Positions 18,455 through 59,095 are shown, counted from the stretch's first letter. The stretch is 64,000 nt of DNA from a virus (IMGVR_UViG_3300044712_001597:1687-65686), one strand, 5' to 3'. The notes: generated by a model from the sequence alone, not told the origin. Numbers and translations: made by a program.

Positions 18455-19294
18455 ATGAGCAACCTAACTCACTCCAATCAACTTATCGAACTGACAGAAT
18501 CCGATCTTCGCGAGCGCGTACCCGCAATCTACGCGACCGACGCAGACAGCCGAGTTTCTGACCGGTACACCTTCGTTCCAACATCCGACGTCCTTCCTGT
18601 CTTGCAAGATAGCGGTTTCGTCGTCACCTCTGCTTCTACTCGGCGAAGCGGTGGGATTCATGCCCGGCATCGTCTCGAACTGTTTCACCGAGACAGTCTC
18701 GATGATCTCCGTAAAGGCCGGTTGGATGGATGTCCGCGGGTGATTCTCGAGAACAGTCACGACCGCAGCCGCCGTTTGGTTCTACTGGCCGGGTATTACC
18801 GGCTGGTTTGCTCCAACGGTCTAGTGGTCGCCAGCGGAGCGTCCGGCGAACTCAAGTCGCTGCACCTCAAATTGGACCGCACGGCGATTTGCACGTTGGT
18901 CAAAGATCTCGCGCGAATGCTCGATGCGACCACCTCGGCTGCGGAGTCCTTCCGCAAGCGCATGTTGACTCCAATGGAGAAATCAACTTTCGCGTGCTAC
19001 GCGCTCGAAGCTCGCTATCGCGGATGGAACTACTACCCCATCGAAGCGAAGTCCTTGCTGGCTGTTCGCCGCGACGCCGATAAAGGAGACGATCTTTGGA
19101 CCGTGTTCAACCGAGTGCAGGAGAATATCGTGCGCGGAGGAATGACAACCAACGCAGGTCGCCGCAGTCAAGGCTTGAAAAGCTTCCACGCGTCCGTGAA
19201 GGTCAATCAGCAACTTTGGGCCGGAGCCGAAGCTCTTGCTGCCGGAGGAACGAAGGCGCTACAAGTTCTGCGCAAGCAAATCTCCAAGGAGTAG
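18455..19294 (+). CDS. DUF932/DUF945 family protein
   Basis: SDRYTFVPT, NSHD, GYYRLVCSNGLV, RRDADKGDDLWTVFNRVQEN, NQQLW. Confidence 0.88.
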   Translation: MSNLTHSNQLIELTESDLRERVPAIYATDADSRVSDRYTFVPTSDVLPVLQDSGFVVTSASTRRSGGIHARHRLELFHRDSLDDLRKGRLDGCPRVILENSHDRSRRLVLLAGYYRLVCSNGLVVASGASGELKSLHLKLDRTAICTLVKDLARMLDATTSAAESFRKRMLTPMEKSTFACYALEARYRGWNYYPIEAKSLLAVRRDADKGDDLWTVFNRVQENIVRGGMTTNAGRRSQGLKSFHASVKVNQQLWAGAEALAAGGTKALQVLRKQISKE

Positions 19295-19310
19295 TCTTCA
19301 TCTTCTTCAT

Positions 19311-19353
19311 AGAGGGTCGAGACCGCAAGATCTCGGCCCTCTAAACTTTTTTT
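19311..19353 (+). terminator. Intrinsic terminator
   Basis: AGAGGGTCGAGA-loop-TCTCGGCCCTCT followed by a T-run. Confidence 0.75.
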
Positions 19354-19367
19354 CACTTTCTCAAAGA

Positions 19368-19411
19368 TTTTTGTTTACTTCTTAGCAGAAGTTGATATGG
19401 TCAGAAATGTC
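19368..19411 (+). promoter_or_regulatory. Phage promoter (copy 3)
   Basis: TTTTTG-TTTACT-16nt-TATGGT-10nt-ATGAGC. Confidence 0.7.
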
Positions 19412-20365
19412 ATGAGCAAACCAAACAACATCCAAATCGGCACCCCGGTCCAAGTCAAGATTCGCGGTGAGATTGTCACAGCAACCTACGTCGGCTGGAG
19501 CGACCGCTACGACACGGGAATTGTGGAGTACAATGGCGATCGCCACTACCGCAAGATTCAAACGGACGGGTCGAGCAGCTTGTCTTCCTCGTCTCCTATC
19601 GAAGTTAAGCCAAGCCGCTTCAACATCAACACGCGGTTCGACTTCATCGAGCAGGTCGTGGACATGGTCATCGCCGGCGAAAGCAAGTCAGTGATCATCA
19701 CGGGTGATGGCGGTCTCGGAAAAACTCACACGGTCATGGACCGCGTAAAGAAAGCGGGTCTTGCAGCCAGCGAAGTTTTGGAAGACGCCGATGAAGATGA
19801 TGAAGAAGGAGAACGCACCAGCGGGGTCACGGTCGGCGATTACTTCGTGGTGAAAGGCTTCATCACCAGCCGCGCTCTCTATGAACTGCTCTACGAAAAC
19901 CGCGACCGCATCGTGATTTTCGACGATTGCGATAGCGTGTGGGAAGCTCCTACGTCGGTATCGATTCTCAAAGCTGCGTTGGACAGCTACGACACTCGCA
20001 CAATCAGCTGGCTCAGCGCGATGAGCGACCCCGACATTCCGCGCTCCTTTGAGTTCCGCGGGCGCATCATCTTCGTCAGCAACCAGAGTCTCGGTAAGCT
20101 GGATCAAGCGGTGCTTAGCCGCTGCCTCTACGTGGACGTTACGATGACGCCAACGGAGAAAATCGAGCGCATCCGCTTTATCGCTCCCAATGTCCGCCCC
20201 GATATGTCGATGGCCGCGAAGAAAGAAGTGGTTGATCTGCTCGAGGAGTTCAAGGACCGCGTGGGCGATCTCAACATCCGCACGTTCTTGAAGGTGTGCG
20301 ACATCCGCAGTCGTGGTTCCGAAAACTGGCGCGATCTCGCGGAGTATATGATCACTGCGTTCTAA
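19412..20365 (+). CDS. AAA+ ATPase
   Basis: Walker A GDGGLGKT, Walker B IVIFDDCD, IFVSN, arginine finger SR. Confidence 0.88.
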   Translation: MSKPNNIQIGTPVQVKIRGEIVTATYVGWSDRYDTGIVEYNGDRHYRKIQTDGSSSLSSSSPIEVKPSRFNINTRFDFIEQVVDMVIAGESKSVIITGDGGLGKTHTVMDRVKKAGLAASEVLEDADEDDEEGERTSGVTVGDYFVVKGFITSRALYELLYENRDRIVIFDDCDSVWEAPTSVSILKAALDSYDTRTISWLSAMSDPDIPRSFEFRGRIIFVSNQSLGKLDQAVLSRCLYVDVTMTPTEKIERIRFIAPNVRPDMSMAAKKEVVDLLEEFKDRVGDLNIRTFLKVCDIRSRGSENWRDLAEYMITAF

Positions 20366-20374
20366 CACACAGGT

Positions 20375-20422
20375 TGGAGGCTCCTGAGGACATAAAACTC
20401 CTCGGGAGCCTTCATCATTTTC
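20375..20422 (+). terminator. Intrinsic terminator
   Basis: GGAGGCTCCTGAGGA...TCCTCGGGAGCCTTC hairpin followed by T-rich tail. Confidence 0.65.
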
Positions 20423-20428
20423 TTGAAG

Positions 20429-20473
20429 TTTTTTGTTTACTTCTTAGCAGAAGTCGGTACTATCTAAATCGTC
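20429..20473 (+). promoter_or_regulatory. Phage promoter (copy 4)
   Basis: TTTTTTG-TTTACT-TCTTAGCAGAAGTCGG-TACTAT-10nt-ATGAGC; spacer nearly identical to copy 3. Confidence 0.72.
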
Positions 20474-21202
20474 ATGAGCAACACCACATCTACTTCACAG
20501 CAGGAAAGCCTGCTCAACAAAATCCGTAATCTCCTCAAGCTGGCTGATCCGGCAAACGGAGCCACGCAGGCCGAAATGGAAACCGCGATGCGCAAAGCGC
20601 AAGAGCTTATGGTTCGCCACGGCATCGAGCAAATGGACCTCGGCAGCGCCGCCGAAGCCTCTCCCGTGGACGAAGAGCGCGTCACGATGTCCCGCAAGAA
20701 GTATCCGCAAGATCGTTGGATCCCGCGGGTTCTGAAAGCAGTGTTCGACGTCGACATTTTGGTCTCTTCCGCTTGGCGTCATGGAGCATACCGCCACATG
20801 TACATCATCATTGGAGAGCCGGTTGACCGTGAAGCCGCGAAGATGGCGATCACCTACGTTTTCGACGCGATGACAAAAGGCCTCAATGCGTACCTCAAAG
20901 TGACGGGCCAATCATGGAATTCTACGACGGCTCATTCGTTCTATCGTGGAGTCGCTGAAGGTTTCATCCGCGAATCGGCTCACGGACGCGCAGCCGCTAT
21001 GAAGCGCTTTAAGAAAGAAGAGCAAGACCGCTTCGCGATTGTTCTGGTCGACAAGTCGAAAGCGATCGCCAAGTACGTCGAGACGAAATATCCGAAGCTG
21101 CGCTACGGCAGCCGAGGAATCCGCGCGAACTTCGATGAGTCAGCCCACGCGGCCGGGCACGCAGCGGGAGCCGCTATCGACTTCTCCACGAAGCTCAATT
21201 AA
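20474..21202 (+). CDS. DUF2786 domain protein
   Basis: KIRNLLKLA...EMETAMRKAQELMVRHG; SFYRG; AHAAGHAAG. Confidence 0.88.
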   Translation: MSNTTSTSQQESLLNKIRNLLKLADPANGATQAEMETAMRKAQELMVRHGIEQMDLGSAAEASPVDEERVTMSRKKYPQDRWIPRVLKAVFDVDILVSSAWRHGAYRHMYIIIGEPVDREAAKMAITYVFDAMTKGLNAYLKVTGQSWNSTTAHSFYRGVAEGFIRESAHGRAAAMKRFKKEEQDRFAIVLVDKSKAIAKYVETKYPKLRYGSRGIRANFDESAHAAGHAAGAAIDFSTKLN

Positions 21203-21243: not shown

Positions 21244-21498
21244 GTGGAAGTTAGCTCAAAACTTCTGGCACATCCTTCTCTTCGTGGGAATTCTCGCCAT
21301 CGTCAGCCTGTGGCCCATCCGGAAGTAGTCAAAACGCTTCAACGCGAATTCGTCGGTCGATGCTCTTGCGGTCGGCCGGCGAATGTTCGCATCCGCACGG
21401 TGCTTGAGCGAAAGCAAATGTTCGACGGAAAAGTAGTTCCCATTTGCACCGTGGGTTATCTTCTTTGCGAAGAATGCGCGACTTCGCGATCTCATTGA
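21244..21498 (+). CDS. Hypothetical zinc-ribbon protein
   Basis: CSCG...LCEECA; converges on the giant gene. Confidence 0.4.
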   Translation: MEVSSKLLAHPSLRGNSRHRQPVAHPEVVKTLQREFVGRCSCGRPANVRIRTVLERKQMFDGKVVPICTVGYLLCEECATSRSH

Positions 21499-24400
21499 TG
21501 GCGCGGATTTCGCAGAACCTGCTTGATCATCTCTTCGTATTCTTCGGGAGACGCGTCGGCTTTACGAATTCCGCGATTCAGTAGAATGGTTTCCGCTTTC
21601 TTGCGTTCCTCTATCCAGGACTGACGATTGAAGGACCCGTCCGGATTAGAATAGCGCGGATTGTATCCCGGCATGGCCCGGAACGGCTCTTCTGCGAGTC
21701 CTGACAGAAAACGAGTCATCGAGGATGAGCCAGGCGTGACTTTTATTGGCTCAGATGCAAGATTTACCGCGGACAGGGGAGAAATCACGCCTGACTCGCC
21801 GTCGATCACTTCTGGAATATCAGACCCGACATCTGACAAAGGCATGGCCTGAAATCCTGGGCCTCCTGGCTTTTTTGAGTCTATCAAGCTTTGAAGCTCT
21901 TCGTCAGAGACATTTTCGACTAGAGCGGCAAAAAGTAAATTGGCCGTGACGGATGCCGAGTGGATGTTTGATACTGGAAGTCCAACAGGGTGATTGTTCA
22001 AAGTCAAGCCGTAAGTAATATCGTTAGGGTCGATAATCTTCCACACGTTTCCTTGAGGATCTGTGTGCACGTTGGATTTCGACCAATCTTGACTGCTAGC
22101 CCAATTCACTAAACTTTCTGCAAGATTTTTTTTCGGCGGACTCGTTTTGGTCTTCTTTGGTTTTCCAAAGACTGCCGCGACGGCCTCGTCCAGCGTGTCG
22201 TAGGATTCTCCTTCCTTGATACGGCGACCGATTTCCCAAACCGACCATCCTCCGTTTCGCTTCTCGATGAACGTTTTTCGCTTAGACTTAGGACTATTAG
22301 GATTAAATACCGTGAATTCGTCGATGTTTCCGAGTCCCGAGACCCCTGTAATTTTCAAATCGGGGTATTTCATAAGAAACTCGGCCATGAAATCTGCTGA
22401 GATAGAGCTCTTAGCGGCATCGTGCAGAGTATCTGATTTATGAGGTTTTCCATCCGACGTGCTTGACCCAAACGAAGTATCCTTGTGGGCTTCTGCTTGG
22501 CTCTGAGCGAGAGCAAATACTTGATCCAACGACGGCAACGTCCCAAACACCTTTCCGGCCATCTGAACGTCCCATCCTTTAGAGTCATCTCCGCTCACGT
22601 CGATAGTCTGCGATGGAGAAACTTTCAACTCGAAAGTTAAGGAATCTGCGAATCCATGCAAGTTTTCAACTTGAACATCTGGAGCAATCTTTTTCGCAGC
22701 GTTTATGAAGTCCGCCGTTGTCATTCCCGCAGACAGTTTGGGGCTTTGATTGGCTTCTTTGCTCTGCGGGTCTACCGACTCAGGCGCGTCGAGAGATTTG
22801 AAAGCGATGTCAAATCCTGGACTTGTGCTCTTGTCGAACTCCGGCTCGCTTGCTAAATCTTTCCAGCTTTTCGCACTTGCGATATCTTCAAAAGACTTGG
22901 CGCTAACGATTTCTTTTAGATACTTCAAACTTTTGTTGATTCCTTGTCTATGGTAGACGCCATAATTAAACTCAATTCCATGCGCGTCAAACGAGTGAAT
23001 TTGAATTCCTGTCTTGTCGATGATAAGCGTGTTCGCGATGTCGCTCGGAGTAGTCCACTCGTAAATCAGCGGTGGATCCGTCGGACTAAACGGCTCTGCG
23101 CCGGCCCATCCCCACCAATCTTCTTTCGAAAACGGTTTGAACGCGGATAGTAGCGACTCTGAAGAGATGAGAGTTTTTTGCGACTTTGGTTGCGGCGATT
23201 TTGAAATCATCTCGGACACTGGACGCTCAACTTGCTCTCCGCGTCCTTCAAGGTCCTTGAGCACCGGCAACGCGATCTTGCGCATCTTGCTGGACACAAA
23301 CGGAAGCAGTTCACGGATAGACTTCGCATTGGCTTTGAAGTCAAGCATCTTCTTGATCCAACGATGTCCCTCAGAAGCGCGGTAGTAATTCTGCAGTTTG
23401 TTGAACACCGTGTCCGTATTATGCTGCAAGTCGTAAACGTGGTCGATAGCCACCGCTTTTTGAGACAGCGTCTGCGCGTTTCGCAGCATCAACCAGCCGT
23501 CAGCGATTCCGGCCCACGCGCGTCCGCCATACGCACTGTTCCATCTTCCTTTGGAGAACAAAGTTTGCGCGAAGCTGACAACTTGCGTGCGAGTCCAGCC
23601 GAGTTTGTCGGCAGCTCGGCGCAGCGCAGCGTAACTAGTCTCATAGCTATCGCTTTGTCCCTTAAGCTCGGCATCTTCACCTGGCTTACGGTTTTCGTAT
23701 CCTGCTTTGTAGGCACTATGATACTTGATAAACTGTTGATAGAGCGGATTGTCTTGAATTTCTTTAGGTTGTTTGTTGTCGAGTCCGTGGCGAAACTCTG
23801 CGGCAATCGCGAAATACACTGCGTCCAAAAGCTTTTCTTGAAGATTGGGATAGAATATCCGCTTGGCGTAGTCCAAGTCGTTTTCATACTCTTTGTAGCG
23901 AAGACCGCGAATCCTGTCCGGCGAGTTGACAGACGATGCGAATATCTTATCAAAAGGCATAGTCTCCAAGTACGACAAGACGTAGAAGTCAGCCATTGTC
24001 ACCTTCGGATCATGCGGAAGATCGTATGTCACCGAAGGCATGAACTGCGGCTGGCCTTGGGTAATCACGTCGCGCCGCATTTCGGGGGTAATGCTGACAC
24101 GATGAATCGGGACTTTCTCGCCCGCAACGCTCACCTTGAACTCCATGTTTTCGTCAGGAGCGATGATCATCTCCCACCCAAGATTTTCTGCTTCTTCTTT
24201 GGTCTTAACCGACAGTAAGTCTTCTAAAATGGAGTTTGCTTGCTCAAGACCTTCTCTGGAAGAAGTGTTATCTTCTTCGCGAAAGAACATCGACATTTCA
24301 AATTCTGCTTCGCCGCCGATTACTGAGACTCCATTCCTGTCAACTATGATACTCGCGGGTCTTCCATTCACCGCAAGCTCTCCAATATAGGGCCGGATCT

Positions 24401-27400
24401 TGTCAGAGAATTCCTCTGCTCCAGCAAAAGCCTCCCAGTCCACATCTGTAATGGGGTTAAGTTTTGGAACTTTAAGTTCTCCCAGCTCGATATCACCGCG
24501 CTCCACCTTCCCGCCCCACTGCTTGACGTATTTGGCGATCTCCTTCGGGAGAATCTGGTCGTAGAAGCCCTTCATGCCTTCGCCGCCTACTTTAAGGTCG
24601 AGGCCAGAGTATGTTTGTCGGTTGCTTGGGTTCTCGGATATTTTTGCGGCCAGCTCTTTTCCAATAACGTCTGGCAATTCTTCGATTGTCGCAGTTTTGA
24701 CAATCGCGCTACTGAACGACCTGCCAGATCCCTTTGGCCAGATGAAGAGTTGTTTTGCCGCTTTGTCGTAGTCGATTTTATCGACCTGCTTGCTCAGGTC
24801 ATACCGCTCGGCCTGCGTTTCGCCAGTCGTCCACCCGATCCACTCCTTGCCCGTCTCGACGGCCTCACGGAGGGCGCGCTTGAACATTTGTAATGGCCAG
24901 GTTTTGCGGAATGGCGCGTCAGGAACCTTCGCAGCCTCGTCCATCGTCGCAGGAACCACAGTGCCGAACGGAGAGATGGCCATTTGTAATGTGTCGCGAT
25001 ACCCCTTCTCTCTTCCCACCTGGTGCAGCTTGCTTTGAATTTCTTCAATGAACAGACCGGGCTTTCCGTCGGCGTCTATGCGGTCATTCACGCGGGTCCA
25101 AGCAAGAGCTTTCAGGTCGGAGTAATGAGCTGTGTCAGAAGAAGAGAATGGATATTGGCTCTTTGCGACGCCGCCGATTGCATCCCTGGCGGCCTTCAGA
25201 TAGAAGCGCTTTTTGTCATCGTCAAGAGTTTTCCAGTGTTCCTCATCCGACTTTGAACCTCCGACGTTTGCCAGGGCCTTAGAGCGCTGGTGAATGTCGA
25301 TCTCAATCTGCTCTTCGGTCGCCAGTTTCTGGACCGGCTCGATAGTCGCGCCGAGTTCTTCGACAGTGGCGTTGTTGATTTGCCTAACTGCTCGTCTGGC
25401 ATGATCCTCAGTAAGATACAAGGCGCCTCCCATCTGAATCATGCCGCCCTTCATCACCTTGTAATAAGTGATCGTTCGCGATGACGGTCCAAACCCCGGA
25501 GCCTTCAACACGATTTCGCGGTGGTTATCTCCGCCCGGAAGAGTCCAGTTTGTGTTGCGAGGAAGTTCGTCTTTCCTTTTCTTTGGCTTACGAACAGGCA
25601 CTATTTCATAGCCAGACTCTTCCAGAGACAATCCTTCAACTGCGTCGATTTCATTTATTGCCTCTTGGGGAGACCGGAAAGACGTTGAGTAGACATCCGA
25701 CCCATTCTTCTTGACTCTCCAAACGGTCTCTGTCTCCGAGCTGTCTCCAAGAACGATCTCTGCCAGTTCAACATTTCCCTCATTCTGAAGGTAATCCAGA
25801 ATATCCTGCTTCGTCACGGACTCGCGATCTTGAATCCACGGAATGATGCCAGTCCACTTGAGTTCCTCTTCATTGGTGAACTTGCGCGCAAGGGCCTCTG
25901 CTTGTTGGGCTGTAAACTTCTCTTGCTTCTGCTCTTCGAATCCTTTTCCAAGGCGCGAGTAGAAGCCATTGGCCGTCGGCATGAACTTCGGATAGGCGGA
26001 GGTCGCTTTGAGTTTATTTGGTTTAAGCACAGCGTACTCTTTGCCAACTCCTGGTACTCCACGCGCGACTATTACGTCATGCCCATTCTGTTTTGCGAAC
26101 TCAACTACTCGCTTACCGAGCTCTGCTGGCGATATTATTTTTTCGTCGCTATGCGCAAAGTCGTCCCATAGATCCAACTCGCCTTTTCTACGCTTTCCTG
26201 ATACTCGAATGAGCAACGGATTTTCCGCTTCTAGCGTAGCCAACACAACGTGAGAACCTAGACCCCACGTATCTGTCGTGAGAGACACGGTTTCTGGAAA
26301 AAGGCGCTGCTCGCTAGAAGCGATAATACGAAATCCGTTCTGCTGGATATCACGAGCTCCTTCTGCATTCGTGGTGTGGTACAACTCTTCCCACACAGCC
26401 GGATTTCCAGTTATTTCTCGCGGCATGAATTGCACTCGATCAGTAGTCGGTGAAAGCATCCGTTCTCTCTTAAAAACCAGAATAGAGATATCTCCAGGCT
26501 GTCCGGGTGACGCTTCGTTTTCGTTGCGGTAGGCAATAGAATCGTAGCCGTTTTTAACGAGCTGGTCGATAGTGGCGTCAATACGGTCGTCGAATCCCAA
26601 TTTTTTTATCTCTGCAATTTGAGAGTCAGATAAGGGAGCTACGCTTAACCCGTGAGGATTTCCTGGACGCAGCACGAAGTCGGTGAGCGCCGCGCTGTCA
26701 TCAACATCTCGTGGAATAACCAGCGTTTTTGACAGGTCTGCTCTTGTCTTGTAGACAAATCCTTTTCGGGTTTCGTGCTCATCTGCTAACTCAACTTCGG
26801 CGACATTTCGACCCAAAGCGTCATCAGAAAATTCACCGAGCGAAACAGAAAAAGAAGAAGGAGTATCGTCATACAGATTCCAAATTCTGTTGTAGGCTTG
26901 TTTGAGCGTTTGGCCGAAATGAGCTCCGTGCTGATTGGCCTCGTCAAAAGTCATCGTCCCCGTAATGGGACGTGGTCCACCATGGTACCATGTCATGCCG
27001 TTCAATATTCGAGCGACTTCCGTCGGAGATTGATTCTTCGCGATTTCAAACAAATCGCTAAATTGCGTTACATTTTTTGCTCTTTGTCGAGCTACAAAAT
27101 CTCCAGGCATGAATTGCGGTTGGCCGGAGTCGGGGCGGGAAAGTAGATTCTCTGCTTCATTGATGACTTGGTCTACGATGCTCAAGTCATCTCGTCCACC
27201 CCACTCGGAATACTGCTCTTTGATACCACGAGCGGCTTCGTCAAGACGCTCAAGAAACTCTGGCGAGAAATACCCTTCCGGCGCGTCCTGCGAGATGAAC
27301 TGCAGCTCGTCGATCATATCCTGCGAAGTTAAGTCATCGCCGTCGTTGTAGCGATCAAATAAGTCGGTGAGACGTTCGCGAGTGTAGTCTTGACTTTCGC

Positions 27401-30400
27401 CTGGCATGAACTTTGGTCCCCCCGGAGAGTCGTAAACGGCGGTCATTCCGTTTTCGATGGCCGTATCTTCAATTTCTTTGCGCTGCTTTCGAGTAGGACT
27501 TCCTTCGTAGTAAATTGTGTCCCCATACGTCTGAACCCGGACATATCCCGCGGCCATGACATCCTCATAGTCCACCCGCCGCATATTAACATACTCTTCC
27601 GGAAACACGTCAATATGATTGGACACGTTGATCCACTCTAAGTTTTTTCCTAACCAAGCAGCGCCGCGGACTCTATACGAATTGGAAATCTTTTGCTTCG
27701 ACATAAAGCTTTTCGCGAGCTTAATACGCTCAGGAGTAGAGTCGTTCTCTGAAGCGGGCATGAAGTTGATTGTCATCTTGCCGTAGTCCACTGGAATCTT
27801 CTCAGCGGAGGAAATCTCAAAGGCGTTGATGCGATCCATGCGCGCGGACATGATCAACCGATCAGCCGAGTCTTGCCCTCGTTTAACTGGCAGACGACTG
27901 CGGTCTGGGTTGAGACCCTCGGTGTCTTTTGTGAAAAGGTTGAAGAAATCGTTGACGATATTCTTCTTCTGGAGCGCGATTGCTGGGTCCGTGTCCAGTC
28001 CAACTGCGCCTTTTTCGCCAGCTTGGTGATTGACGAGAACTCTATGCACGTCAGTCCAAAACTTCGCTTTGTCACGTCCCCACAGATTGAGCCGCTCGGG
28101 CTTTTTCTCGCTCCATAGATTCAGTTTGTCGAACATACGGCTAACCGAGATGGTTGTAGCCAAGAAGTTTCCGTCCTTGCTGAAGTGAAAGCCGATAGGA
28201 ACCACATCGCGAATCCGCGGAGCAAGAGATTTATATTTTCCCGCCTTCAAGGCCGCTTGATACTCCATCACGATGCGAGTCCCGTCTTGTTTTTGGAGCA
28301 CAGTGTTGAACGAGCGGATTCGCCGCTTCAATGAAGGAGATACGATGTCGTTGGACAGCGCATCGATGGCTGCGAGCTGAGAAGGAGTAAGAATTCCGCG
28401 GTAGACTCCGTTTCCAACGTCTTGAAAGCGATTTGGAGTTCCGTCATTCGGAGCCCGGTCAACGGCTTCTCGAATAAGCTTTCCACGCAGCCGAGCTCGC
28501 GACTTTACTTCTTTCGCAGTAAGCTGAATCGGAGTTCCGTCTACGTTACGCTTGATGACAGTGTCTGTAGAAACCTTTGCGCCCTCCGGCAGGTTAGACA
28601 TATCGATCGTGGGCGGCAAAGTCATTTCTCGTCCATTCTCGTCAACCAGACGTCCATTCTGGACGCGATATTCCTGGACCAGACGAGCAGCAGCTTGCTC
28701 CAGATCCGGAGTCACTTTGATTTCTCTCAGCGTCACGCCGTCCTTATCACGAATGACGATGGCGATTTCTGTGCTCAAGACTTCAGACGTGTCTTTGTAC
28801 TTCTCTTGCAGAACTCGGTTAGTGAGAAGCTCGGGAATGGATACTTCTGGTTGACGAGCATCTGAAGATGACGCCGCCTCGATCAAGGCTCCGTTCAACG
28901 AGCGAACGCTCCGCTCGAACTGCCGGTAGAGCGCCAGCATCTGAGGCGTGAGGGTGAGTCCAAGAATATCTGAGAATCTTCCAGCTTCATCAAAAAGACC
29001 CGTGGACTGCAACGCGCTCTTAAGCACCTGCACTGCGCGGTTTTTCGATCCGACGTTCACCCAGTCAGCGATTGCTTGTCCCGGAGAATCGAGGGCATCT
29101 CGCAGCGAGAATGCGTCGTTATTGGAAAACCCGGAAAGCTCAGCAAGAATCTCTTCACGAATGTAGGCGCGCATGTTTTCTTGAGAGCCCATGGAGTTCT
29201 TCCAGGCGGCAGGATTCGCCATGTGCGCGGCGTACACTTCGGCCGCGTAGTCCAGTTGATCATCTGAGATAATTCCCGGAGACTGCTGAGAAACAGTGCC
29301 GTCAACATTTTGATTGTAGCGGCCGAACAGTTGATCTCGGAGCGGAGTGAGACGATCTTGAACTTCTTTGAACTGCAGCAAATTGTGAAAGATTTCGTGG
29401 TGCAGAACCCGGCGCATATCTCCAAAAGAGTTGCGTGAAGACAGGATAGCATCCAGATTAACGAACATCGAAGGAATCTCAAGATTCTGCGGGCGCAAAG
29501 CTGGATCCACGTTGGCATACGAACGCTTTGAAAATGCAGCTCCGCGAGTTTGAGAAAGCTCGTTCGCCGTGTATTGCACCTTGTCAACCAATTGGCGAGC
29601 GAGTTGAAGCATCGCTTTCTCGGAGTCCGAAAGGGAAGCATCGTTTTTCGCCCCAAGATTGGCGATGATTGACTCGGCCTCGGTGAGCTTAGAACCGTAG
29701 AGTTCACGAACAAAGTCTATGGCGTTCTCAGCGTTGAGAAGGCGGATGTTCATGTTGGATCCTATACCCGAGTCAGAAGCCAACGTTCCGGCTTTCTCAA
29801 AGGCGTCAAGCACGATCAACGAGTAAGCTCGGCGCGTCGCAGCGATGTCCTCTGGTTTGCTTGAGGATAGCACTTCCCGACGAGCTCGCAGCGACCTGAT
29901 CTTGTCGTCAAGATCGGCGTCGAGAATTCCTTGCTCGGTATTCGACTGCTGTTTGGCGATGGCTTGCGAGAGTTTCGCGTCAATTTGATTGACAGCTTCT
30001 TCCGGGTTGCTGAGACGATCAATGGCCGCAAGCGTTTCTGGGCTTGCAGACTTACGGAACCGCTCGACGTCTGCGTCGTCATCCCGCTGGCGATCACGCG
30101 CGTCAATCTCAAGAGCCGTATCCAACTTTTGGCGGAAAGAAGTTTCAGGATCAAGCGCGACCTCTGCTTTTCGAGCAAGATCGGCTCCCATGGACACACC
30201 GATGCCATATCCCGAGCCAGCTTGGCGCGCGAGGTCTTCAGCATTCTCAATGTCCGGAAGCGCGAGCATGACGCCAAGCACTGCGCCATTCACTCCACTC
30301 TTGTTCAAGGCCCCCGACTGACGAATCACCCAGTCAACAGTTCGCGCGCGGTTGCGTCCGCGAGAACTTCTCTGAACTCGGCGAGCAGACTCTTCTGCGA

Positions 30401-31844
30401 ACTCTTCAGGAGTAAGCGTCTTTTTCGACTTGTCAACGCCCGTTCCGAAAGCCCTGCGAGTCCAATCGGCTGAGTCCGCATCCGCTCCTACCCGCTCAAT
30501 CAGCCCTTTCCGTCCACGAATTCCGATGTCGTCGATTTGTCTTCCAAGGTCTCGCATGAAACGCCCTGGAACTTCCAGTGCTTTCGCGGGAATATGCGTT
30601 GCCATGGAGATAGGCGTATGCATCCCGGCGATCCAAGAATCTCGGCTTCCGGTAAGCCACTCGCTGAAGTCTTGAGACTTGACTCTCGCGATTTCCCCGG
30701 TTTTACGAAGTCCTGCTCCAAGGGCTTCAATCGGGTGCTTTCCGAGCACGACTGGCTTCAATAGAGCCCGGGATGCCACATCGCCCACGGTCTCAATGGC
30801 CGCCGTAGTAGCTTGTGAAAGTGGACGCACGGCCGCTGCAGGAAGACTCAGCGGAGAAAGAATTTCGCCAAGATCGGAGATTGACTCAGTTGGAACGATT
30901 GACTGCGCAAGTACGAGATCTTGGTAGGCCTGTTTAGCTTTCTCAGCTTCCTCAGGACTTGCGCCTTGAAGCTCGGCCGCTTTTTGTGCGGCAGCCTGCA
31001 ACAGCGGATTCTGAGAAAGCAGTTCGGTCGCGCGATCGGGATTCGAAGCGGCGCCCTGCTGCTCCGCAGTGCGCATGATGTCGCGAAGTTGATAGTTCTC
31101 GAATGATTTTTCCTCAGACTGCGGCTCGAGTGAAATAGGACTCGGAGCTCCGACAAGAGCAGAAGCGAGAAGTCGGGCAGTGGCGGTCACGGGGCCTCCT
31201 TGCATCGCGACGTCCAACAGCGGCGATCCCCCCGGAACTTCGCGCATTCTATCGCTGGCTGTAGATCCGTAAAGCGAACCGCGAACGCCGGAGTTCGCTG
31301 TTTCTTCGGCATCTTTAGCCACGCCTGAGGCGACAGACCTCCACGCTTGATTGAGCTGCTTTTCTGCTTCCACGAGCTTTTCAGGCTTAGGTGTCTGAGC
31401 TGGCGTAGTCGCGCCGAGAACTTCACCAGACGCCGGCTGCGGCTTTTGAAAGCTTGACGCCATAGCTTCTTTTCCAAAATTCGCGGTGGCTCCGGCTAAC
31501 TCAACCGCTCCTCGAGCCATACTTCCGAGCTGATCGACAGCCGCAGCCGCGAAAGTAGGAAGTTCACGAACGTCAATCAGTGGACGGGAGCGATCGTCCT
31601 CGAAAAGAAGTCGAAGTTGATCTTGAGTGAGAGTCTCACCGGCCAGTTTACGCTGGCGCAGAGAATCGACGTTTCGGTCAGCTTTCTTTTGTTCGTCCTC
31701 CAACTCATCGAGAATTTGCTTTTTGATTCCCGAAGGCTTTGCTGCTTCTGCTTCGAGCTCAGCTGCGATTTCGTCTTTGATCGTTTTTGGAGTTTTAGGC
31801 TTCTCGCTTTCAAGCTCCCTTGCGATTTCGTCTTTGATGCTCAT
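21492..31844 (-). CDS. Giant polyvalent (DarB-like) ejected virion protein with zincin peptidase and ADP-ribosyltransferase-like modules
   Basis: 3450-aa ORF at the end of the virion operon; HEIFH...E; YHG..GAHFG..GYDSI and YHTT..SLTT..KEYAV modules; repeated FMP linkers. Confidence 0.8.
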   Translation of the reverse strand: MSIKDEIARELESEKPKTPKTIKDEIAAELEAEAAKPSGIKKQILDELEDEQKKADRNVDSLRQRKLAGETLTQDQLRLLFEDDRSRPLIDVRELPTFAAAAVDQLGSMARGAVELAGATANFGKEAMASSFQKPQPASGEVLGATTPAQTPKPEKLVEAEKQLNQAWRSVASGVAKDAEETANSGVRGSLYGSTASDRMREVPGGSPLLDVAMQGGPVTATARLLASALVGAPSPISLEPQSEEKSFENYQLRDIMRTAEQQGAASNPDRATELLSQNPLLQAAAQKAAELQGASPEEAEKAKQAYQDLVLAQSIVPTESISDLGEILSPLSLPAAAVRPLSQATTAAIETVGDVASRALLKPVVLGKHPIEALGAGLRKTGEIARVKSQDFSEWLTGSRDSWIAGMHTPISMATHIPAKALEVPGRFMRDLGRQIDDIGIRGRKGLIERVGADADSADWTRRAFGTGVDKSKKTLTPEEFAEESARRVQRSSRGRNRARTVDWVIRQSGALNKSGVNGAVLGVMLALPDIENAEDLARQAGSGYGIGVSMGADLARKAEVALDPETSFRQKLDTALEIDARDRQRDDDADVERFRKSASPETLAAIDRLSNPEEAVNQIDAKLSQAIAKQQSNTEQGILDADLDDKIRSLRARREVLSSSKPEDIAATRRAYSLIVLDAFEKAGTLASDSGIGSNMNIRLLNAENAIDFVRELYGSKLTEAESIIANLGAKNDASLSDSEKAMLQLARQLVDKVQYTANELSQTRGAAFSKRSYANVDPALRPQNLEIPSMFVNLDAILSSRNSFGDMRRVLHHEIFHNLLQFKEVQDRLTPLRDQLFGRYNQNVDGTVSQQSPGIISDDQLDYAAEVYAAHMANPAAWKNSMGSQENMRAYIREEILAELSGFSNNDAFSLRDALDSPGQAIADWVNVGSKNRAVQVLKSALQSTGLFDEAGRFSDILGLTLTPQMLALYRQFERSVRSLNGALIEAASSSDARQPEVSIPELLTNRVLQEKYKDTSEVLSTEIAIVIRDKDGVTLREIKVTPDLEQAAARLVQEYRVQNGRLVDENGREMTLPPTIDMSNLPEGAKVSTDTVIKRNVDGTPIQLTAKEVKSRARLRGKLIREAVDRAPNDGTPNRFQDVGNGVYRGILTPSQLAAIDALSNDIVSPSLKRRIRSFNTVLQKQDGTRIVMEYQAALKAGKYKSLAPRIRDVVPIGFHFSKDGNFLATTISVSRMFDKLNLWSEKKPERLNLWGRDKAKFWTDVHRVLVNHQAGEKGAVGLDTDPAIALQKKNIVNDFFNLFTKDTEGLNPDRSRLPVKRGQDSADRLIMSARMDRINAFEISSAEKIPVDYGKMTINFMPASENDSTPERIKLAKSFMSKQKISNSYRVRGAAWLGKNLEWINVSNHIDVFPEEYVNMRRVDYEDVMAAGYVRVQTYGDTIYYEGSPTRKQRKEIEDTAIENGMTAVYDSPGGPKFMPGESQDYTRERLTDLFDRYNDGDDLTSQDMIDELQFISQDAPEGYFSPEFLERLDEAARGIKEQYSEWGGRDDLSIVDQVINEAENLLSRPDSGQPQFMPGDFVARQRAKNVTQFSDLFEIAKNQSPTEVARILNGMTWYHGGPRPITGTMTFDEANQHGAHFGQTLKQAYNRIWNLYDDTPSSFSVSLGEFSDDALGRNVAEVELADEHETRKGFVYKTRADLSKTLVIPRDVDDSAALTDFVLRPGNPHGLSVAPLSDSQIAEIKKLGFDDRIDATIDQLVKNGYDSIAYRNENEASPGQPGDISILVFKRERMLSPTTDRVQFMPREITGNPAVWEELYHTTNAEGARDIQQNGFRIIASSEQRLFPETVSLTTDTWGLGSHVVLATLEAENPLLIRVSGKRRKGELDLWDDFAHSDEKIISPAELGKRVVEFAKQNGHDVIVARGVPGVGKEYAVLKPNKLKATSAYPKFMPTANGFYSRLGKGFEEQKQEKFTAQQAEALARKFTNEEELKWTGIIPWIQDRESVTKQDILDYLQNEGNVELAEIVLGDSSETETVWRVKKNGSDVYSTSFRSPQEAINEIDAVEGLSLEESGYEIVPVRKPKKRKDELPRNTNWTLPGGDNHREIVLKAPGFGPSSRTITYYKVMKGGMIQMGGALYLTEDHARRAVRQINNATVEELGATIEPVQKLATEEQIEIDIHQRSKALANVGGSKSDEEHWKTLDDDKKRFYLKAARDAIGGVAKSQYPFSSSDTAHYSDLKALAWTRVNDRIDADGKPGLFIEEIQSKLHQVGREKGYRDTLQMAISPFGTVVPATMDEAAKVPDAPFRKTWPLQMFKRALREAVETGKEWIGWTTGETQAERYDLSKQVDKIDYDKAAKQLFIWPKGSGRSFSSAIVKTATIEELPDVIGKELAAKISENPSNRQTYSGLDLKVGGEGMKGFYDQILPKEIAKYVKQWGGKVERGDIELGELKVPKLNPITDVDWEAFAGAEEFSDKIRPYIGELAVNGRPASIIVDRNGVSVIGGEAEFEMSMFFREEDNTSSREGLEQANSILEDLLSVKTKEEAENLGWEMIIAPDENMEFKVSVAGEKVPIHRVSITPEMRRDVITQGQPQFMPSVTYDLPHDPKVTMADFYVLSYLETMPFDKIFASSVNSPDRIRGLRYKEYENDLDYAKRIFYPNLQEKLLDAVYFAIAAEFRHGLDNKQPKEIQDNPLYQQFIKYHSAYKAGYENRKPGEDAELKGQSDSYETSYAALRRAADKLGWTRTQVVSFAQTLFSKGRWNSAYGGRAWAGIADGWLMLRNAQTLSQKAVAIDHVYDLQHNTDTVFNKLQNYYRASEGHRWIKKMLDFKANAKSIRELLPFVSSKMRKIALPVLKDLEGRGEQVERPVSEMISKSPQPKSQKTLISSESLLSAFKPFSKEDWWGWAGAEPFSPTDPPLIYEWTTPSDIANTLIIDKTGIQIHSFDAHGIEFNYGVYHRQGINKSLKYLKEIVSAKSFEDIASAKSWKDLASEPEFDKSTSPGFDIAFKSLDAPESVDPQSKEANQSPKLSAGMTTADFINAAKKIAPDVQVENLHGFADSLTFELKVSPSQTIDVSGDDSKGWDVQMAGKVFGTLPSLDQVFALAQSQAEAHKDTSFGSSTSDGKPHKSDTLHDAAKSSISADFMAEFLMKYPDLKITGVSGLGNIDEFTVFNPNSPKSKRKTFIEKRNGGWSVWEIGRRIKEGESYDTLDEAVAAVFGKPKKTKTSPPKKNLAESLVNWASSQDWSKSNVHTDPQGNVWKIIDPNDITYGLTLNNHPVGLPVSNIHSASVTANLLFAALVENVSDEELQSLIDSKKPGGPGFQAMPLSDVGSDIPEVIDGESGVISPLSAVNLASEPIKVTPGSSSMTRFLSGLAEEPFRAMPGYNPRYSNPDGSFNRQSWIEERKKAETILLNRGIRKADASPEEYEEMIKQVLRNPRHQ

Positions 31845-31851
31845 AGCAGAA

Positions 31852-33372
31852 TTAGCGGGATTGGCGCATAAGGTTTTTCAGCTGCTCGCGGGTTTGAGCA
31901 AACGCAGGATCTGAGCGATCCATTTTTTCAAGGCGCTCAGCCAAGGCGTCAATTTGACGTTGACGATCTTGCGATTGCTGACTTTGCAAGTTCTTAAGGT
32001 TGGACGTAACAAGTTCCACGAAGTCTTTACGCGCTTTCTGGATTCGTTGGAGATTTTCTTTGAACAGGCGCGGAGAGAGTGAAGGACTGATCGAGCCTTC
32101 AGCGGCGGCCAACAGCGCCAGTTCTTTTTCTGAAATCGCGCCAAGTGCTCCTCCTGTTGGAGAATTACGGCGCATATCGGCCAGAGTCTTGAACGCCACG
32201 TCGGCCTCGATGTTTTCGATGAGCTTGCGCACGTCGTTAGCTCCAGTGTCAAAAGGAACTTTTGCGATAAAGTCAGACATGCGCCCCACGGCTGGCAATT
32301 TCGACTTGTTCACCAAAGCGACTACTTTGTCGATGTCTTCCACTGCACGAGTTGCTTGAGCAAGACCAGACTTGAGTGACTCGATTTCGCGCTCGGTGTC
32401 CGTGTTCGCCGTATCCGGCTCAAAGCGATACTGAACCTGGCCTTTCGCGTTGGTTTCAGCGCTCTTGATGCGGAATCCTTCGGGAACTTCCACTTCCGTG
32501 GCCGACAACGGAGCTCCCGGAGATTGTAGCCGAGCAGTCGGAGTCTTTTCCGCTTCTTCAACTCGCACCTGGCTCTCTGGCAAAATCTGCTGAGTGACGC
32601 GGTCCACTACCACGCTTCCGCCGTTCTCCACGTTCATGCGGACAAAGCGACTTGGAGCTTGCGTTTGCTCCTTCTGCGCTTGAATATCTTCACGCTGCGC
32701 GCGGGTTTGCATGCTTGACATCCGCTCTCCGAGATTGATATCGCGCACGGCCATCAACGGAGTTTCGTTGTACGCTCCAACAAACTCTTCAACAGGAGGA
32801 ACTAAAAGATCAGCCAGTGGAGTCCGTCCCTGGAAAGCGCCGCTTGAGTCAATCGATCGAGGCGTTGTGCTGATTCCTTGTTTTGAGGGGTACGCCGTGT
32901 CAAACAGCGGAAGATCGGGATCGACGTCTGTCGTCAAAGAACCGAAAGGTTCCATTGAGGATCCAGCATTCTTTTGGCGAAGAACGTTGACTTCTTCTTG
33001 AGCTTTCTCCGCTTCGATGAGTTCGCGATTAAGCTTAGCTTGTTCCAAAGGAGTAAGAGGCTTTTCTTCGCCCGCGGTTTCGCGAGCTAACTCCAACGCT
33101 CCGCGAGCCGCGTCAATCTTTTGCTGCTCACGCTTAAGATTATAGTCTTGCACTCCTTTGACCGTATCGACCAACGACCCGGCTCCGATGCGGATTCCGC
33201 TCAACAGCGACTCCAAGCCTGCGATTGACCCTTTCGCCAGCGAGTCAACCCCAGATTCAACTTGAAGAGCCGGCGTAGGAACGAGAGTGCGTCCATCAAC
33301 CAGGGCCAACGGAGAAAGCGAAACCGTTCGCGGAAGAGCAGCTGTTGAAGGAGAAAAGCTGAACCCAGCCAT
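31852..33372 (-). CDS. Internal virion/ejection protein
   Basis: Helical protein just before the giant gene; GGALGAISEKEL motif seen in phage ejection proteins. Confidence 0.6.
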   Translation of the reverse strand: MAGFSFSPSTAALPRTVSLSPLALVDGRTLVPTPALQVESGVDSLAKGSIAGLESLLSGIRIGAGSLVDTVKGVQDYNLKREQQKIDAARGALELARETAGEEKPLTPLEQAKLNRELIEAEKAQEEVNVLRQKNAGSSMEPFGSLTTDVDPDLPLFDTAYPSKQGISTTPRSIDSSGAFQGRTPLADLLVPPVEEFVGAYNETPLMAVRDINLGERMSSMQTRAQREDIQAQKEQTQAPSRFVRMNVENGGSVVVDRVTQQILPESQVRVEEAEKTPTARLQSPGAPLSATEVEVPEGFRIKSAETNAKGQVQYRFEPDTANTDTEREIESLKSGLAQATRAVEDIDKVVALVNKSKLPAVGRMSDFIAKVPFDTGANDVRKLIENIEADVAFKTLADMRRNSPTGGALGAISEKELALLAAAEGSISPSLSPRLFKENLQRIQKARKDFVELVTSNLKNLQSQQSQDRQRQIDALAERLEKMDRSDPAFAQTREQLKNLMRQSR

Positions 33373-33829: not shown

Positions 33830-34708
33830 TTACTCCTTGCTAGTTTGAGTTGTTGGTTTCCACGAAAAGAGAGGTCCTAGCTCAGAGTCTACGCGCAAGT
33901 TGCAATACGCGGCCGAAGGAGATTCCCATGCCACCAAGTCGGGACGATTGACGACCTCAGTTTGATACTTCGGGCAAAACACGGAAGAGGGTTTTGACGG
34001 ATCCACGCAGCGAAAGCAAGCCGAGTAATAGTCTGAGTTGAGAGTCTTATCCGACTTGGTTTGACCGGAGGCCGCGTCATAGCGGTTTTCATCGAGAGGA
34101 ACATCGTACTGCCGAGCGTATTCAAAAACGTCTTCATCCGTCCAGTTCCTCAACGGGAAAGCAGCCGCGGCTCCCAGAGGATTCTGCACAAACGATACGC
34201 TGAGCGGAATATCGCCCGAACACGGATCGCTATCCACGGATTTGTGGCCGTGGAACATACAATTCCAAGTAAAGTCGAAAGATCCTGTCGGACGAGACAA
34301 AAAAGAAGTCAGACCGCACAAAAACGAACTTTCGACTCCAGGCTCTGTAGTTCCGCGCGCCAGGGTGAGATAGTCCGGAGATGGAGAAGCGAAAGAGCTG
34401 ATTTGATACTTCTGAAGAACATCCACACGCCCATTGCCTGCGCAAAGAGAAATTGACGACGGTGCGTAGTCATAGGTCTCAAGATTCCACTCTTGAATCA
34501 GGCGGAAAATAAACTGCAACTTGCGCGGATACCACGGTTCTTTCCAGCACACGACTGGAAGTTCAACTCCAAGGCCGAAGCGAAGCAAGTGCAGCATGAC
34601 GGTCGAATCTTTTCCGCCGCTCCAAAGAACGCACGGACGAGTATTCTCGCGAAGCACTTTTTCGCAGAAATCCAAAGTGGAAGAAACTTTTGCGGAAAGA
34701 GCGTCCAT
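33830..34708 (-). CDS. PAPS-reductase-family (PP-loop) protein
   Basis: WSGGKDS, PLRNWTDEDVFEY, CFRC...CPK. Confidence 0.85.
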   Translation of the reverse strand: MDALSAKVSSTLDFCEKVLRENTRPCVLWSGGKDSTVMLHLLRFGLGVELPVVCWKEPWYPRKLQFIFRLIQEWNLETYDYAPSSISLCAGNGRVDVLQKYQISSFASPSPDYLTLARGTTEPGVESSFLCGLTSFLSRPTGSFDFTWNCMFHGHKSVDSDPCSGDIPLSVSFVQNPLGAAAAFPLRNWTDEDVFEYARQYDVPLDENRYDAASGQTKSDKTLNSDYYSACFRCVDPSKPSSVFCPKYQTEVVNRPDLVAWESPSAAYCNLRVDSELGPLFSWKPTTQTSKE

Positions 34709-40300: not shown

Positions 40301-40571
40301 AACCATCGACTGCGCAGACCAGATAGTCAACTTCAGTAGAATTCTTGGTGACTCGGAAATGAGTCATTCCTTGGAGATTACCTTCCGGAAGGATGAGCTT
40401 CATCGCGAATCCTGGACGAGTCTGAGCAATTCCGCCGCGATTGACAATGTTGACCGCTCGTTGATACTGACCTTCAGGAAGCAACCAAGGATGACGAACC
40501 GTGTTCATCCCGGCGATCCATCCGGCGTCAACCTTTACCGCTTGGCCTGATTCGATGGTAGGAGACCGCAT
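37302..40571 (-). CDS. Tail nozzle/stabilization protein with C-terminal delta-60 (DUF5122-like) beta-propeller repeats
   Basis: TRPG N-terminal motif; repeats of QPDxxxLVGGSFT..RL...G..D..F; paired SxISQxDAD motifs. Confidence 0.7.
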   Translation of the reverse strand: MRSPTIESGQAVKVDAGWIAGMNTVRHPWLLPEGQYQRAVNIVNRGGIAQTRPGFAMKLILPEGNLQGMTHFRVTKNSTEVDYLVCAVDGYVYAVPFPLAQPRDWRQFRLSNVKFNPLAPMVHFCDCEKTVQTLADSTIQIVPTYNVLVMQDGVSQSAFWDGEFSRHLDESAPSLETPRGTWMSFSGGRLWIARDKLVIASDLLDPLKFTERTQGEGRGDFSFRQPVTGLTSFTSDSRSEVVVVFTEERSEILRSGIRNRSQWPLTQDFQSMLFPSTGCIAGRSIVFQAGLMWWYSSGGLVSSDAVASSQLTSQVNFKDAEMAFSKQFLSEDRSGICGLSFENYLLMSMPVRQSLNAETFVLDYSPVSESTSDKIPAWSSVWTGIRPVQWTSANIQGRRRAFAASVDYAALSDGSHNHVWEAFMPEREDSFFELDDDFTLTEYQQPIFCEFETRLLGDGQDLKEFQFAQLDFMELADDVSVRVDYRGRRGAYKQIHCQKIIAPVSKESAGILLPSGDDHDFSDLRKQSRRLTTEVSNSQAGCGTCEAHERENIDKAFSLLVRWCGQAALESLRVFLSAYPEKSNGQCTPDESKACLVFEDGSSEAFDRDPKFVPSDQLYSAVSRQVWTSSQTFTETLSCDEGSVTGAIVVTATGNYRSKISQEDADARALSAATESAQNQAAYLRTQYPCFWDATKIADTRCTAALNDSVLSIAYRAGNNAILGGEFTLDRTVSQARVAARNPDGTRLLPFAVGTAFNDVVRAVALDFSNRVVVCGDFSEYNGSISAGIARLLPSGEFDPTFQTGTGLGSTRQGLCLAIQPDNQVLVGGSFTSYGGVSLSSALCRLSITGQLDGAFTPPSGYSRVFKLAVLPSGEIVAVVKVSPTGGQVVRLLSNGSSDPSFTPYSFTLPVSESIGFDVQPDGKLVLAADGIASGADIVRLNPSGTVDGTFTGLGFNADVHAVRCVDTSIYVGGSFTTYGGAAVQRMVRLNSNGSRNAAFNSGLYVLNGAVRAIEIADSGFLFIGGDFTTVITSPSPYFAKITQLGSFVSSFTAATATRSHRSAISQADADSVAQSLANQAVAALLPCP

Positions 40572-58552: not shown

Positions 58553-59053
58553 CTAGTCCAGGGATTGAGCAAGATCGACGACTCTTGGAGAGACGTTGAC
58601 GTCCACGCGCTCTGTGAGCTCACCAGCGAGTTTCGCGTCCAATTGAAGAGCGGCGAGTTTATCCACGCTCTTGACGACGTCTCCATGCGGAGTAGGACGA
58701 ATCTCCGAAGCTAAGTCAGAATGGATGTGGATTTCGCCGATGGGAGTTCGTACGGCTCGGGCGAGGAAGTCGCGTTTTTCGTCCAAGCTCAAGAAGCGAT
58801 CACTCTGTGAGCGAGCAGCGAGTCGTGCTTTGAGCTCAGCGACATAAGCTTGGACTTCCGGCTTGCGGATGAGCTTAGTGGCTCGATTGGCCGCCATTCC
58901 GCCTCGAGCTTTCTCGCTGGCCACGTTCCATGACGCGCAGTGCTGTGGAAAAGCTGCGAGATACGCACGATAGAGCGGATAACCATCGAGAACGTGCATG
59001 TCCACGAATTCTCGTTGCTGCAGAGTCAAACGTTGTGCGGCGCGGGATAGCAT
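58553..59053 (-). CDS. terS: Terminase small subunit
   Basis: LTLQQREFV...AY..A...ATKLIRKPEVQAYV; DKLAALQLDAKLAGE. Confidence 0.8.
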   Translation of the reverse strand: MLSRAAQRLTLQQREFVDMHVLDGYPLYRAYLAAFPQHCASWNVASEKARGGMAANRATKLIRKPEVQAYVAELKARLAARSQSDRFLSLDEKRDFLARAVRTPIGEIHIHSDLASEIRPTPHGDVVKSVDKLAALQLDAKLAGELTERVDVNVSPRVVDLAQSLD

Positions 59054-59095
59054 AACGCCGGCAAGATACAACTCGCGAAGCCTGCAAGTAAAACA
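59054..59095 (-). promoter_or_regulatory. Promoter for the packaging operon
   Basis: Minus strand reads TTTACT-18nt-TATCTT-9nt-ATG. Confidence 0.55.

Follow-up and report, generated by a model that had tools for sequence, protein, structure and literature searches.

This study concerns a giant gene in the genome of an uncultured phage of about 66 kb, known from a 65,686-base IMG/VR virus record (IMGVR_UViG_3300044712_001597) that CheckV rates as complete (100%), of which the stretch analysed here, the window, covers 64,000. The gene, an open reading frame (ORF) on the minus strand at 21492..31844, specifies a protein of 3450 amino acids (aa), designated P0001. It is laid out as a conserved N-terminal region (27765..31844, aa 1-1360), four variable modules, m1 to m4 (25986..27755; aa 1364-1478, 1482-1577, 1581-1805 and 1809-1953), a conserved hub module, m5 (24045..25976, aa 1957-2600), and a C-terminal variable part (21495..24035, aa 2604-3450), with the tripeptide FMP at the borders between them. 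A search of 5.8 billion proteins returned 308 relatives at E ≤ 0.001, and the comparisons below use the 120 of these that were listed, P0001 among them. The N-terminal 1360 aa are shared by 46 of the 120 (the N-region group), while the other 74 share the hub module only. Many relatives carry Pfam families typical of polyvalent proteins, and with the length of 3450 aa this supports the reading of the product as a phage polyvalent protein. An earlier note, made from the DNA sequence alone, had described it in such terms, with modules separated by FMP downstream of a zincin peptidase.

The sequence GGCATGAA is present in the window in 12 copies against 2.16 expected, a number that 0 of 100 shuffles reached, and six copies lie on the plus strand at 24037, 25978, 26422, 27106, 27403 and 27757, exactly as had been claimed. 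The giant protein has six FMP in frame (aa 1361, 1479, 1578, 1806, 1954 and 2601, with successive spacings of 118, 99, 228, 148 and 647 aa), where 0.115 are expected; six were reached in 0 of 20,000 residue shuffles, the maximum being three. The first (INFMPA; 27756..27764, aa 1361-1363) ends the N-terminal region, and the second (GPKFMPG; 27402..27410, aa 1479-1481) is where homologues of m1 and m2 end or start. The third (GQPQFMPG; 27105..27113, aa 1578-1580) and fourth (RVQFMPR; 26421..26429, aa 1806-1808) are marked by single-module homologues. The fifth (YPKFMPT; 25977..25985, aa 1954-1956) stands directly before the hub module, with BLAST blocks beginning at aa 1946-1954, and the sixth (GQPQFMPS; 24036..24044, aa 2601-2603) ends the hub. 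The shared contexts reported earlier are also present, GQPQFMP at aa 1578 and 2601, and PKFMP at aa 1479 and 1954. Two proposed variants, FQAMP (21840..21854, aa 3331-3335) and FRAMP (21669..21683, aa 3388-3392), do exist but are weak candidates for membership of the motif, AMP being expected about 0.3 times by composition; the C-terminal 115 aa that hold them have no BLAST relatives among the 119 other proteins. Two further ORFs of the minus-strand virion block contain one in-frame FMP each, one of 765 aa (53253-55550, minus strand, GAFMPGQ) and one of 1089 aa (37302-40571, minus strand, EAFMPERE), the latter being a fibre-like beta-propeller. These two occurrences may be due to chance, with about 0.7 expected in the remaining ORFs by a rough estimate, or may mark further substrates.

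The motif is a trait of the N-region group. Pooled over its 46 proteins, FMP is the most enriched tripeptide (156 occurrences against 5.9 expected, in 40 of the 46), and is the only one among those enriched more than 10-fold that recurs several times per protein; no comparable, multiply recurring enriched tripeptide was found in the 74 hub-only relatives. Counts for the N-region relatives P0002-P0046 are 2-8 FMP each, where about 0.1 is expected, and further relatives reach nine (P0134). Related IMG/VR loci, of which none were retrieved with a single-protein query and 80 with an alignment (A1) as query, yielded 75 giant ORFs, and 32 of these have at least two FMP. The junction consensus is G-[QD]-x-[QR]-[FY]-[ML]-P, after which the residues are small or acidic. 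Over 177 sites, the residue four places before FMP is preferentially G (68 sites), position -3 favours Q, D or G and position -2 favours I, L or P, while Q (63) or R (59) directly precedes FMP; A (69) or E (43) comes next, ahead of an acid-rich stretch. In a 44-sequence alignment, the junction column at the end of the N-region reads N37-[Y20 F14 L7]-[M33 L11]-P43, and that at the end of the hub G44-Q44-x-[Q29 R9]-[F35 Y3]-[M33 L4]-P. Counts of FMP alone are too low because Y and L variants occupy orthologous junction columns, and the aligned sequences indicate that the true motif is [NQR]-[FY]-[ML]-P. In some of the relatives P0131-P0135 a module is preceded by a series of shorter x-M-P-E repeats (QVRMPEAQRAMPEGEQ), which hints at a minimal element of the form [hydrophobic]-M-P-[acidic or small].

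The position of the motif at module boundaries, supposed in the earlier note, is one on which five independent lines agree, from BLAST block ends (in P0001 and over all pairs), indels, Pfam domains and single-module relatives. In most relatives the N-terminal BLAST block stops at aa 1363-1366, and conservation resumes with a block that opens at aa 1946-1954. When the 46 proteins were compared in all pairs, 2535 of 7841 internal block ends fell no more than 10 aa from an FMP, against 207.7 expected; block ends peaked on the Pro of the motif, and block starts on one to three residues before the Met. Modules have been gained and lost from motif to motif: close relatives differ by 12 non-redundant whole-module indels of 153-368 aa, and for 22 of the 24 edges a motif is no more than 12 aa away, the exception being P0007 compared with P0009. 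Across 13 relatives, 22 of 23 Pfam stretches (ART-PolyVal, PBECR5, GNAT, DUF7178, DUF3293, methyltransferase) are placed between motifs. A search of aa 1364-1956 against 1.84 billion representatives recovered 21 relatives, each matching a single module, over ranges of about aa 1391-1482, 1477-1572, 1575-1838 and 1797-1953. For the first site, structure prediction gave the same border: in an AlphaFold model of aa 481-1400, built with 39 sequences and having a mean pLDDT of 75.6, confidence holds to aa 1360 and drops below 50 from F1361 to the end, so that the confidence border falls exactly at F1361. For sites 2-6, a linker state is suggested by the homology blocks. Split genes ending at a junction were also sought, and none of the 84 loci gave a convincing case, although six ORFs of at least 150 aa have a motif in their last 25 residues; a look for shorter relatives of the N-terminal region gave only four, one labelled partial by its source and the others possibly cut at contig ends.

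Conservation acts on the protein. At the DNA level the six sites are identical over only 8-12 bases: their Pro codons end in C, A, T, G, G and T, and even the two GQPQ contexts differ at synonymous positions. Since synonymous positions vary, a DNA repeat is rejected as the cause, and with it the notion in the earlier note that microhomology for cassette exchange is what keeps the motif. Illegitimate recombination at the junction may nevertheless aid cassette exchange as a by-product.

The modules themselves are only partly interpretable. The whole protein gave no Pfam match at E ≤ 0.1, and none of 13 segments scored above threshold; a search of PHROGs with the giant protein returned a single match, to phrog_20946, a family of unknown function, at aa 2761-2840 (E 7.2e-8) in the C-terminal variable part. 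That part also contains a tblastn match of aa 2604-2867 to LR756511. Module m4 exists in addition as free proteins of 129-178 aa, for which Pfam found nothing. In the Atlas, aa 1581-1956 (m3 and m4) scored 0.93, with 186 features in common with clusters of PF18760 (ART-PolyVal). A hidden Markov model (HMM) built from the ART-PolyVal modules of relatives gave a best domain E of 0.018 against the window protein, in a one-sequence search, which is not significant, and an ART-PolyVal-like nature of m3 and m4 is offered as a lead only. Relatives that share both the N-region and the hub carry PF18760, PF18814, PF00583 and PF23802. The hub, of about 640 aa, has a second half common to all 119 other listed relatives and many invariant residues, for example EE.QSD.H, DAPFRKDW and GGEGMKGFYD; its carriers among the 120 reach 6021 aa. 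Pfam gave no match to it, and the Atlas returned hypothetical proteins only (score 0.86).

The N-terminal region, which by BLAST block ends and by its presence among relatives defines the FMP-bearing family, contains a putative gluzincin-like peptidase region at about aa 760-1000 (28845..29567). Its HExxH motif, HEIFH (aa 816-820), is at 29385-29399 as the earlier note stated, while the second motif, EEILAE (aa 897-902), lies at 29139..29156, about 240 bases below the coordinates which that note gave for the pair. H816, E817 and H820 are invariant in 44 sequences, and 43 of these also have E898, the candidate third metal ligand. Among 57 proteins with the peptidase region, 49 have HExxH, seven HExxGH, and one is truncated. 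HExxH lies in a predicted helix in both AlphaFold models; E898, whose ligand role is putative, falls within a predicted helix in each, 408-426 in the first and 189-208 in the second. The second motif has the consensus x-E-[IV]-[LM]-[AS]-[ED] and follows HExxH by about 80 aa. The zinc motifs of M49 dipeptidyl-peptidase III (DPP III) are HEXXGH and EEXR(K)AE(D), and the pair HExx(G)H / x-E-[IV]-[LM]-[AS]-[ED] resembles these, in motifs only; no DPP III chain was among the fold-search rows shown. A search of BFVD gave other phage polyvalent proteins as the top matches (E 9.1e-5, prob 1.00). Relatives P0031, P0040-P0044, P0046, P0045 and P0066 show that the catalytic helix can switch between HExxH and HExxGH inside a single family. 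A different arrangement is seen in FMP-less relatives (P0082, P0091, P0099, P0103, P0111 and others), where an HExxH of the type FLHETGHF directly follows the hub, and where G-F-x-[LM]-F-Q, not GQxQFMP, closes the hub; the position of the peptidase therefore differs between subfamilies. The last folded part before the first FMP (27789..28511, aa 1112-1352) is weakly WYL-like: in VIA it matched WYL regulators, namely BrxR (7qfz_A; Z 8.8, rmsd 3.2, 87 residues aligned) and, similarly, PafBC and CapW (Z 8.4-8.8, 86-94 aligned), a level of match that the tool itself describes as common. The part may or may not be a ligand-sensing domain beside the peptidase.

The motif and the peptidase region occur together. 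In the 120 proteins, 41 have both a peptidase-region HMM match and at least two FMP, 70 have neither, six have the region only and three have FMP only. Four of the six region-only proteins (P0002, P0004, P0005 and P0029) have YLP or FLP at all of their sites, the sites of P0034 read FMA or WMA, and P0003 has one NYMP at its first junction, with no repeated variant found. All three FMP-only proteins have a related sequence in their N-terminal part: HEGLGH (P0045), HEFGGH (P0066) and HETMH (P0049). The variant sites change together within a protein, P0029 having FLP at all seven sites where its close relatives P0028 and P0030 have FMP, and P0002, P0004 and P0005 having YLP at all three. In a FastTree phylogeny with midpoint rooting, calculated from the columns of aa 1100-1360 in 44 rows of alignment A1 (P0021 and P0032 of the 46 left out), the switched lineages (P0029; P0002, P0004 and P0005; P0034) form three separate branches. 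Because all sites in a lineage switch together, we infer from these sequences that one factor reads all the junctions; unrelated modules with independent structural roles would not be expected to change in step.

What has to be explained, then, is a real motif, conserved at the protein level, that marks exchangeable units, travels with the N-region and, in some lineages, switches in concert. The explanation tentatively preferred here, although it falls a little short of an even chance, is that the giant protein is a self-processing polyprotein, with a peptidase acting in cis and cutting at the motif. It would consist of three parts, an N-terminal 1360 aa with an HExxH...E metallopeptidase-like domain, a conserved hub, and interchangeable effector-type modules, and every module would end in a short junction motif. 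The likeliest reader of the junctions would be the peptidase that the polypeptide itself contains. As zincins prefer a hydrophobic residue at P1', the cut would be expected at the aromatic-Met/Leu pair of each exposed junction or beside it, either in the capsid or after ejection into the host. This would release the hub together with a lineage-specific set of effectors, which in relatives are ART-PolyVal, PBECR5 RNase-like and GNAT modules. Catalysis, the scissile bond, timing and delivery are in this scheme inferred. A bolder form of the proposal, possible but to be held more loosely, is a true phage polyprotein with a readable code, in which an N-terminal gluzincin would cut every [FY][ML]P once the protein is packaged or ejected, setting free a lineage-specific mixture of anti-host modules, and the code would co-evolve with it: FMP would become FLP, YLP or FMA at all sites at once as the peptidase changes, and modules could be swapped freely provided that the junction is kept. 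Much less probable is the idea that a cut after Phe leaves C-termini such as ...D-I-R-F that mimic the tail of the host SSB, which is acidic-hydrophobic.

A number of observations weigh against self-processing. The association of motif and peptidase region has a Fisher p of 5e-22, a value which is descriptive only, since the proteins are related and not phylogenetically independent. The whole 1360-aa N-terminal region co-occurs with the motif, so that the reader might lie elsewhere within it, for example in the WYL-like aa 1112-1352. One FMP in P0031 falls inside a PBECR5 domain, and AlphaFold leaves the tail with the first FMP of P0001 unplaced, outside any cleft. The peptidase region matched no Pfam family, a profile search with it against PDB sequences gave two chance rows (E 0.14 and 0.62), and Foldseek against the PDB found no match at E ≤ 0.001. 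The Foldseek rows did include zincins, all insignificant: neurolysin (E 0.024, prob 0.18), thimet oligopeptidase, Ste24p (E 0.55) and the putative Zn peptidase 4l7a (E 0.8). In the VIA searches for a zincin, the best matches (Z 5.5 and 4.9) were helical hairpins only, with no zincin. The upstream zincin peptidase of the earlier note is thus upheld in its invariant HExxH, its downstream Glu and its co-occurrence with the motif, while the fold searches left the zincin fold itself unconfirmed. Finally, N4 vRNAP, ArdC and TraC1 are described as being delivered uncut despite their peptidase domains, in the available part of Iyer, Burroughs, Anand, de Souza and Aravind 2017 (PMC5512222).

The last two points would suit an alternative in which the motif is never cut but serves for docking or tethering, its copies binding one partner while the protein stays whole, as N4 vRNAP does. 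The partner might belong to the phage, such as the inside of the capsid, the portal, a chaperone for packaging or the protein's own N-terminal region, or it might be a host factor. Concerted switching of sites would be expected with any single reader, whether a protease or not, and an exposed position at module ends is suited to a short linear motif. A binding motif, however, needs to be present neither at every module border nor at the edges of exchanged units, and the invariance of HExx(G)H and the Glu across sequences of 20-45% identity argues for an active enzyme with some substrate. Docking is on balance considered unlikely, while remaining the most serious competitor to self-processing.

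The positional evidence for a processing site would hold equally if a different protease, of phage maturation or of the host, cut at the motif, leaving the HExxH domain with another task, such as that of an effector or in penetration of the cell wall. A peptidoglycan-related role has been proposed for the metallopeptidase of phi24B gp47, in the available part of a preprint (10.64898/2026.04.10.717836), and the single in-frame FMP in each of two more virion-block ORFs would be in keeping with such a protease. Against this, scans of window ORFs, 28 with PHROGs and 26 with Pfam, revealed none recognisable as a maturation protease, and a host protease would leave unexplained both the confinement of the motif to N-region proteins and its lineage-specific switches. 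A separate protease is regarded as improbable.

Slightly less credible again is the view that the motif has no reader, and is a structural cap or hinge inherited with the modules, or a preferred joining point in recombination. In relatives without the motif, a conserved G-x-x-[LM]-F (e.g., GFPMFQ, GQALFVGG) does align with the Phe that closes the hub, and indels running from motif to motif are what recombination at a common junction would give. Yet the same core is found on modules that are unrelated to each other (N-region, hub, ART-PolyVal, GNAT, DUF7178 and PBECR5), the DNA identity of the sites is as short, and their synonymous positions as variable, as noted above, and the concerted change of the seven sites of P0029 relative to its close kin is hard to explain without a common reader. 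The remaining suggestion, also from the earlier note, that the Met of FMP is an internal translation start by which modules are made separately as well, can for practical purposes be discarded: ATG is present at all six sites, and that at aa 1479 has a G-rich run 8-14 nucleotides upstream, but this is the only purine-rich upstream run among the six, the other five sites being without a Shine-Dalgarno-like sequence, and the FLP and YLP lineages carry Leu at every site.

The genomic surroundings of the gene bear on how its product might reach the host. On the plus strand, from about 4 to 21 kb, are replication genes for a helicase, an exonuclease, a DNA polymerase, a thymidylate synthase and a primase-like protein. 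The minus-strand block starts with a small-terminase-like ORF (58553..59071), continues with matches to tail, baseplate and other virion proteins, and ends with the giant ORF as its final gene, which begins 7 nucleotides past the stop of the upstream ORF. This neighbour (31852..33372, minus strand, 506 aa) is a candidate ejection protein, matching phrog_24864 (E 5.7e-19) and phrog_2534 (E 7.5e-7), the latter annotated as 'released from the phage upon host infection'. Podovirus-like phages encode internal or ejected proteins at such a position in the virion block, and because the giant gene lies at the end of the block, beside the phrog_2534-matching ORF, it occupies what would be an ejected-protein position. 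Packaging and injection of the giant protein may be supposed from this gene position and by analogy. Also inside the virion block is an ORF of 292 aa (33830-34708, minus strand) that is PAPS-reductase-like (PF01507, E 5.5e-7; phrog_424, E 1.1e-10). Just before the end of the giant gene, at 18455-21202 on the plus strand, are three ORFs of unknown function that match DUF932 (E 9.9e-24), phrog_1250 (E 1.3e-47), and DUF2786 with DUF7168.

Cultured phages offered little for comparison. A megablast search of the gene against phage records gave no match, and tblastn of aa 1-3000 against 50,697 phage records gave three weak, partial matches, none of them N4-like and none to an Stx phage; the N-terminal region was found in no cultured phage in these records. 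An N4-like vRNAP was considered and set aside, as neither Pfam nor PHROGs recognised an RNA polymerase family and the tblastn search of aa 1-3000 matched no N4-like phage.

The mechanism proposed here has analogues elsewhere. In MARTX toxins, with their cysteine protease domain, and in RNA-virus polyproteins, effector modules and a protease are combined in one chain, and short conserved linker sites release the modules once delivered. Their protease classes, sites and organisms are different, and the likeness is one of mechanism by analogy only. Among phage proteins, the nearest class is that of the polyvalent proteins, with which P0001 shares its size, the effector-type domains of its relatives (ART-PolyVal, PBECR5, GNAT, DUF7178) and a metallopeptidase-like domain of the HExxH/HExxxH kind, whereas it differs in lying below every Pfam threshold and in having an N-region and hub that are absent from Pfam. 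According to the available part of Iyer 2017 (PMC5512222), embedded metallopeptidases, in HEXXH and HEXXXH forms, are proposed to process polyvalent proteins, and a parallel is drawn with RNA-virus polyproteins; the main text of that paper, supplementary files aside, does not mention a repeated junction motif, and neither 'FMP' nor 'linker' occurs in it. N4 gp50 vRNAP resembles P0001 in its length of about 3500 aa and in the placing of its gene with those for the virion; the same source counts it among the polyvalent proteins that have a metallopeptidase domain, but reports that it is packaged unprocessed. P1 DdrB, in the account given there (PMC5512222), belongs to the phage head, has its metallopeptidase domain at the C-terminus and undergoes proteolytic processing ahead of packaging. 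By analogy it is a precedent for self-processing, although it is processed in one event, without a defined repeated site, and has a different architecture. As described in the available part of the preprint (10.64898/2026.04.10.717836), phi24B gp47 is likewise a polyvalent protein (2811 aa) with a metallopeptidase domain, was detected in virions by mass spectrometry and is a proposed ejection protein, but differs in its LPD1, LPD5, LPD38 and MuF-C domains; neither a junction motif nor processing of gp47 is mentioned in that part. Literature searches for an FMP motif in phage returned only an unrelated adenovirus paper, and those on polyvalent proteins or phage polyproteins returned no such site. 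The polyvalent class and the idea of self-processing were thus already known; what appears to be new, judged from sequence comparison, is a junction motif that is defined, repeated and co-evolving.

Polyvalent proteins are widespread in phages and conjugative elements, and their self-cutting was proposed in 2017, with no cleavage site defined so far and with the best-studied of them (N4 vRNAP, ArdC and TraC1) delivered whole. The family described here offers a candidate site of three to seven residues, occurring two to nine times per protein, and its natural variants FLP, YLP and FMA can be used as built-in controls. With so precise a candidate site and such variants, the self-cutting hypothesis becomes directly testable. 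If the sites prove to be uncut, a multi-copy junction motif with a co-evolving reader would still merit explanation. If they are cut, the motif would help to parse thousands of unannotated giant phage proteins into effector modules, and the family would represent a natural example of a modular release system.

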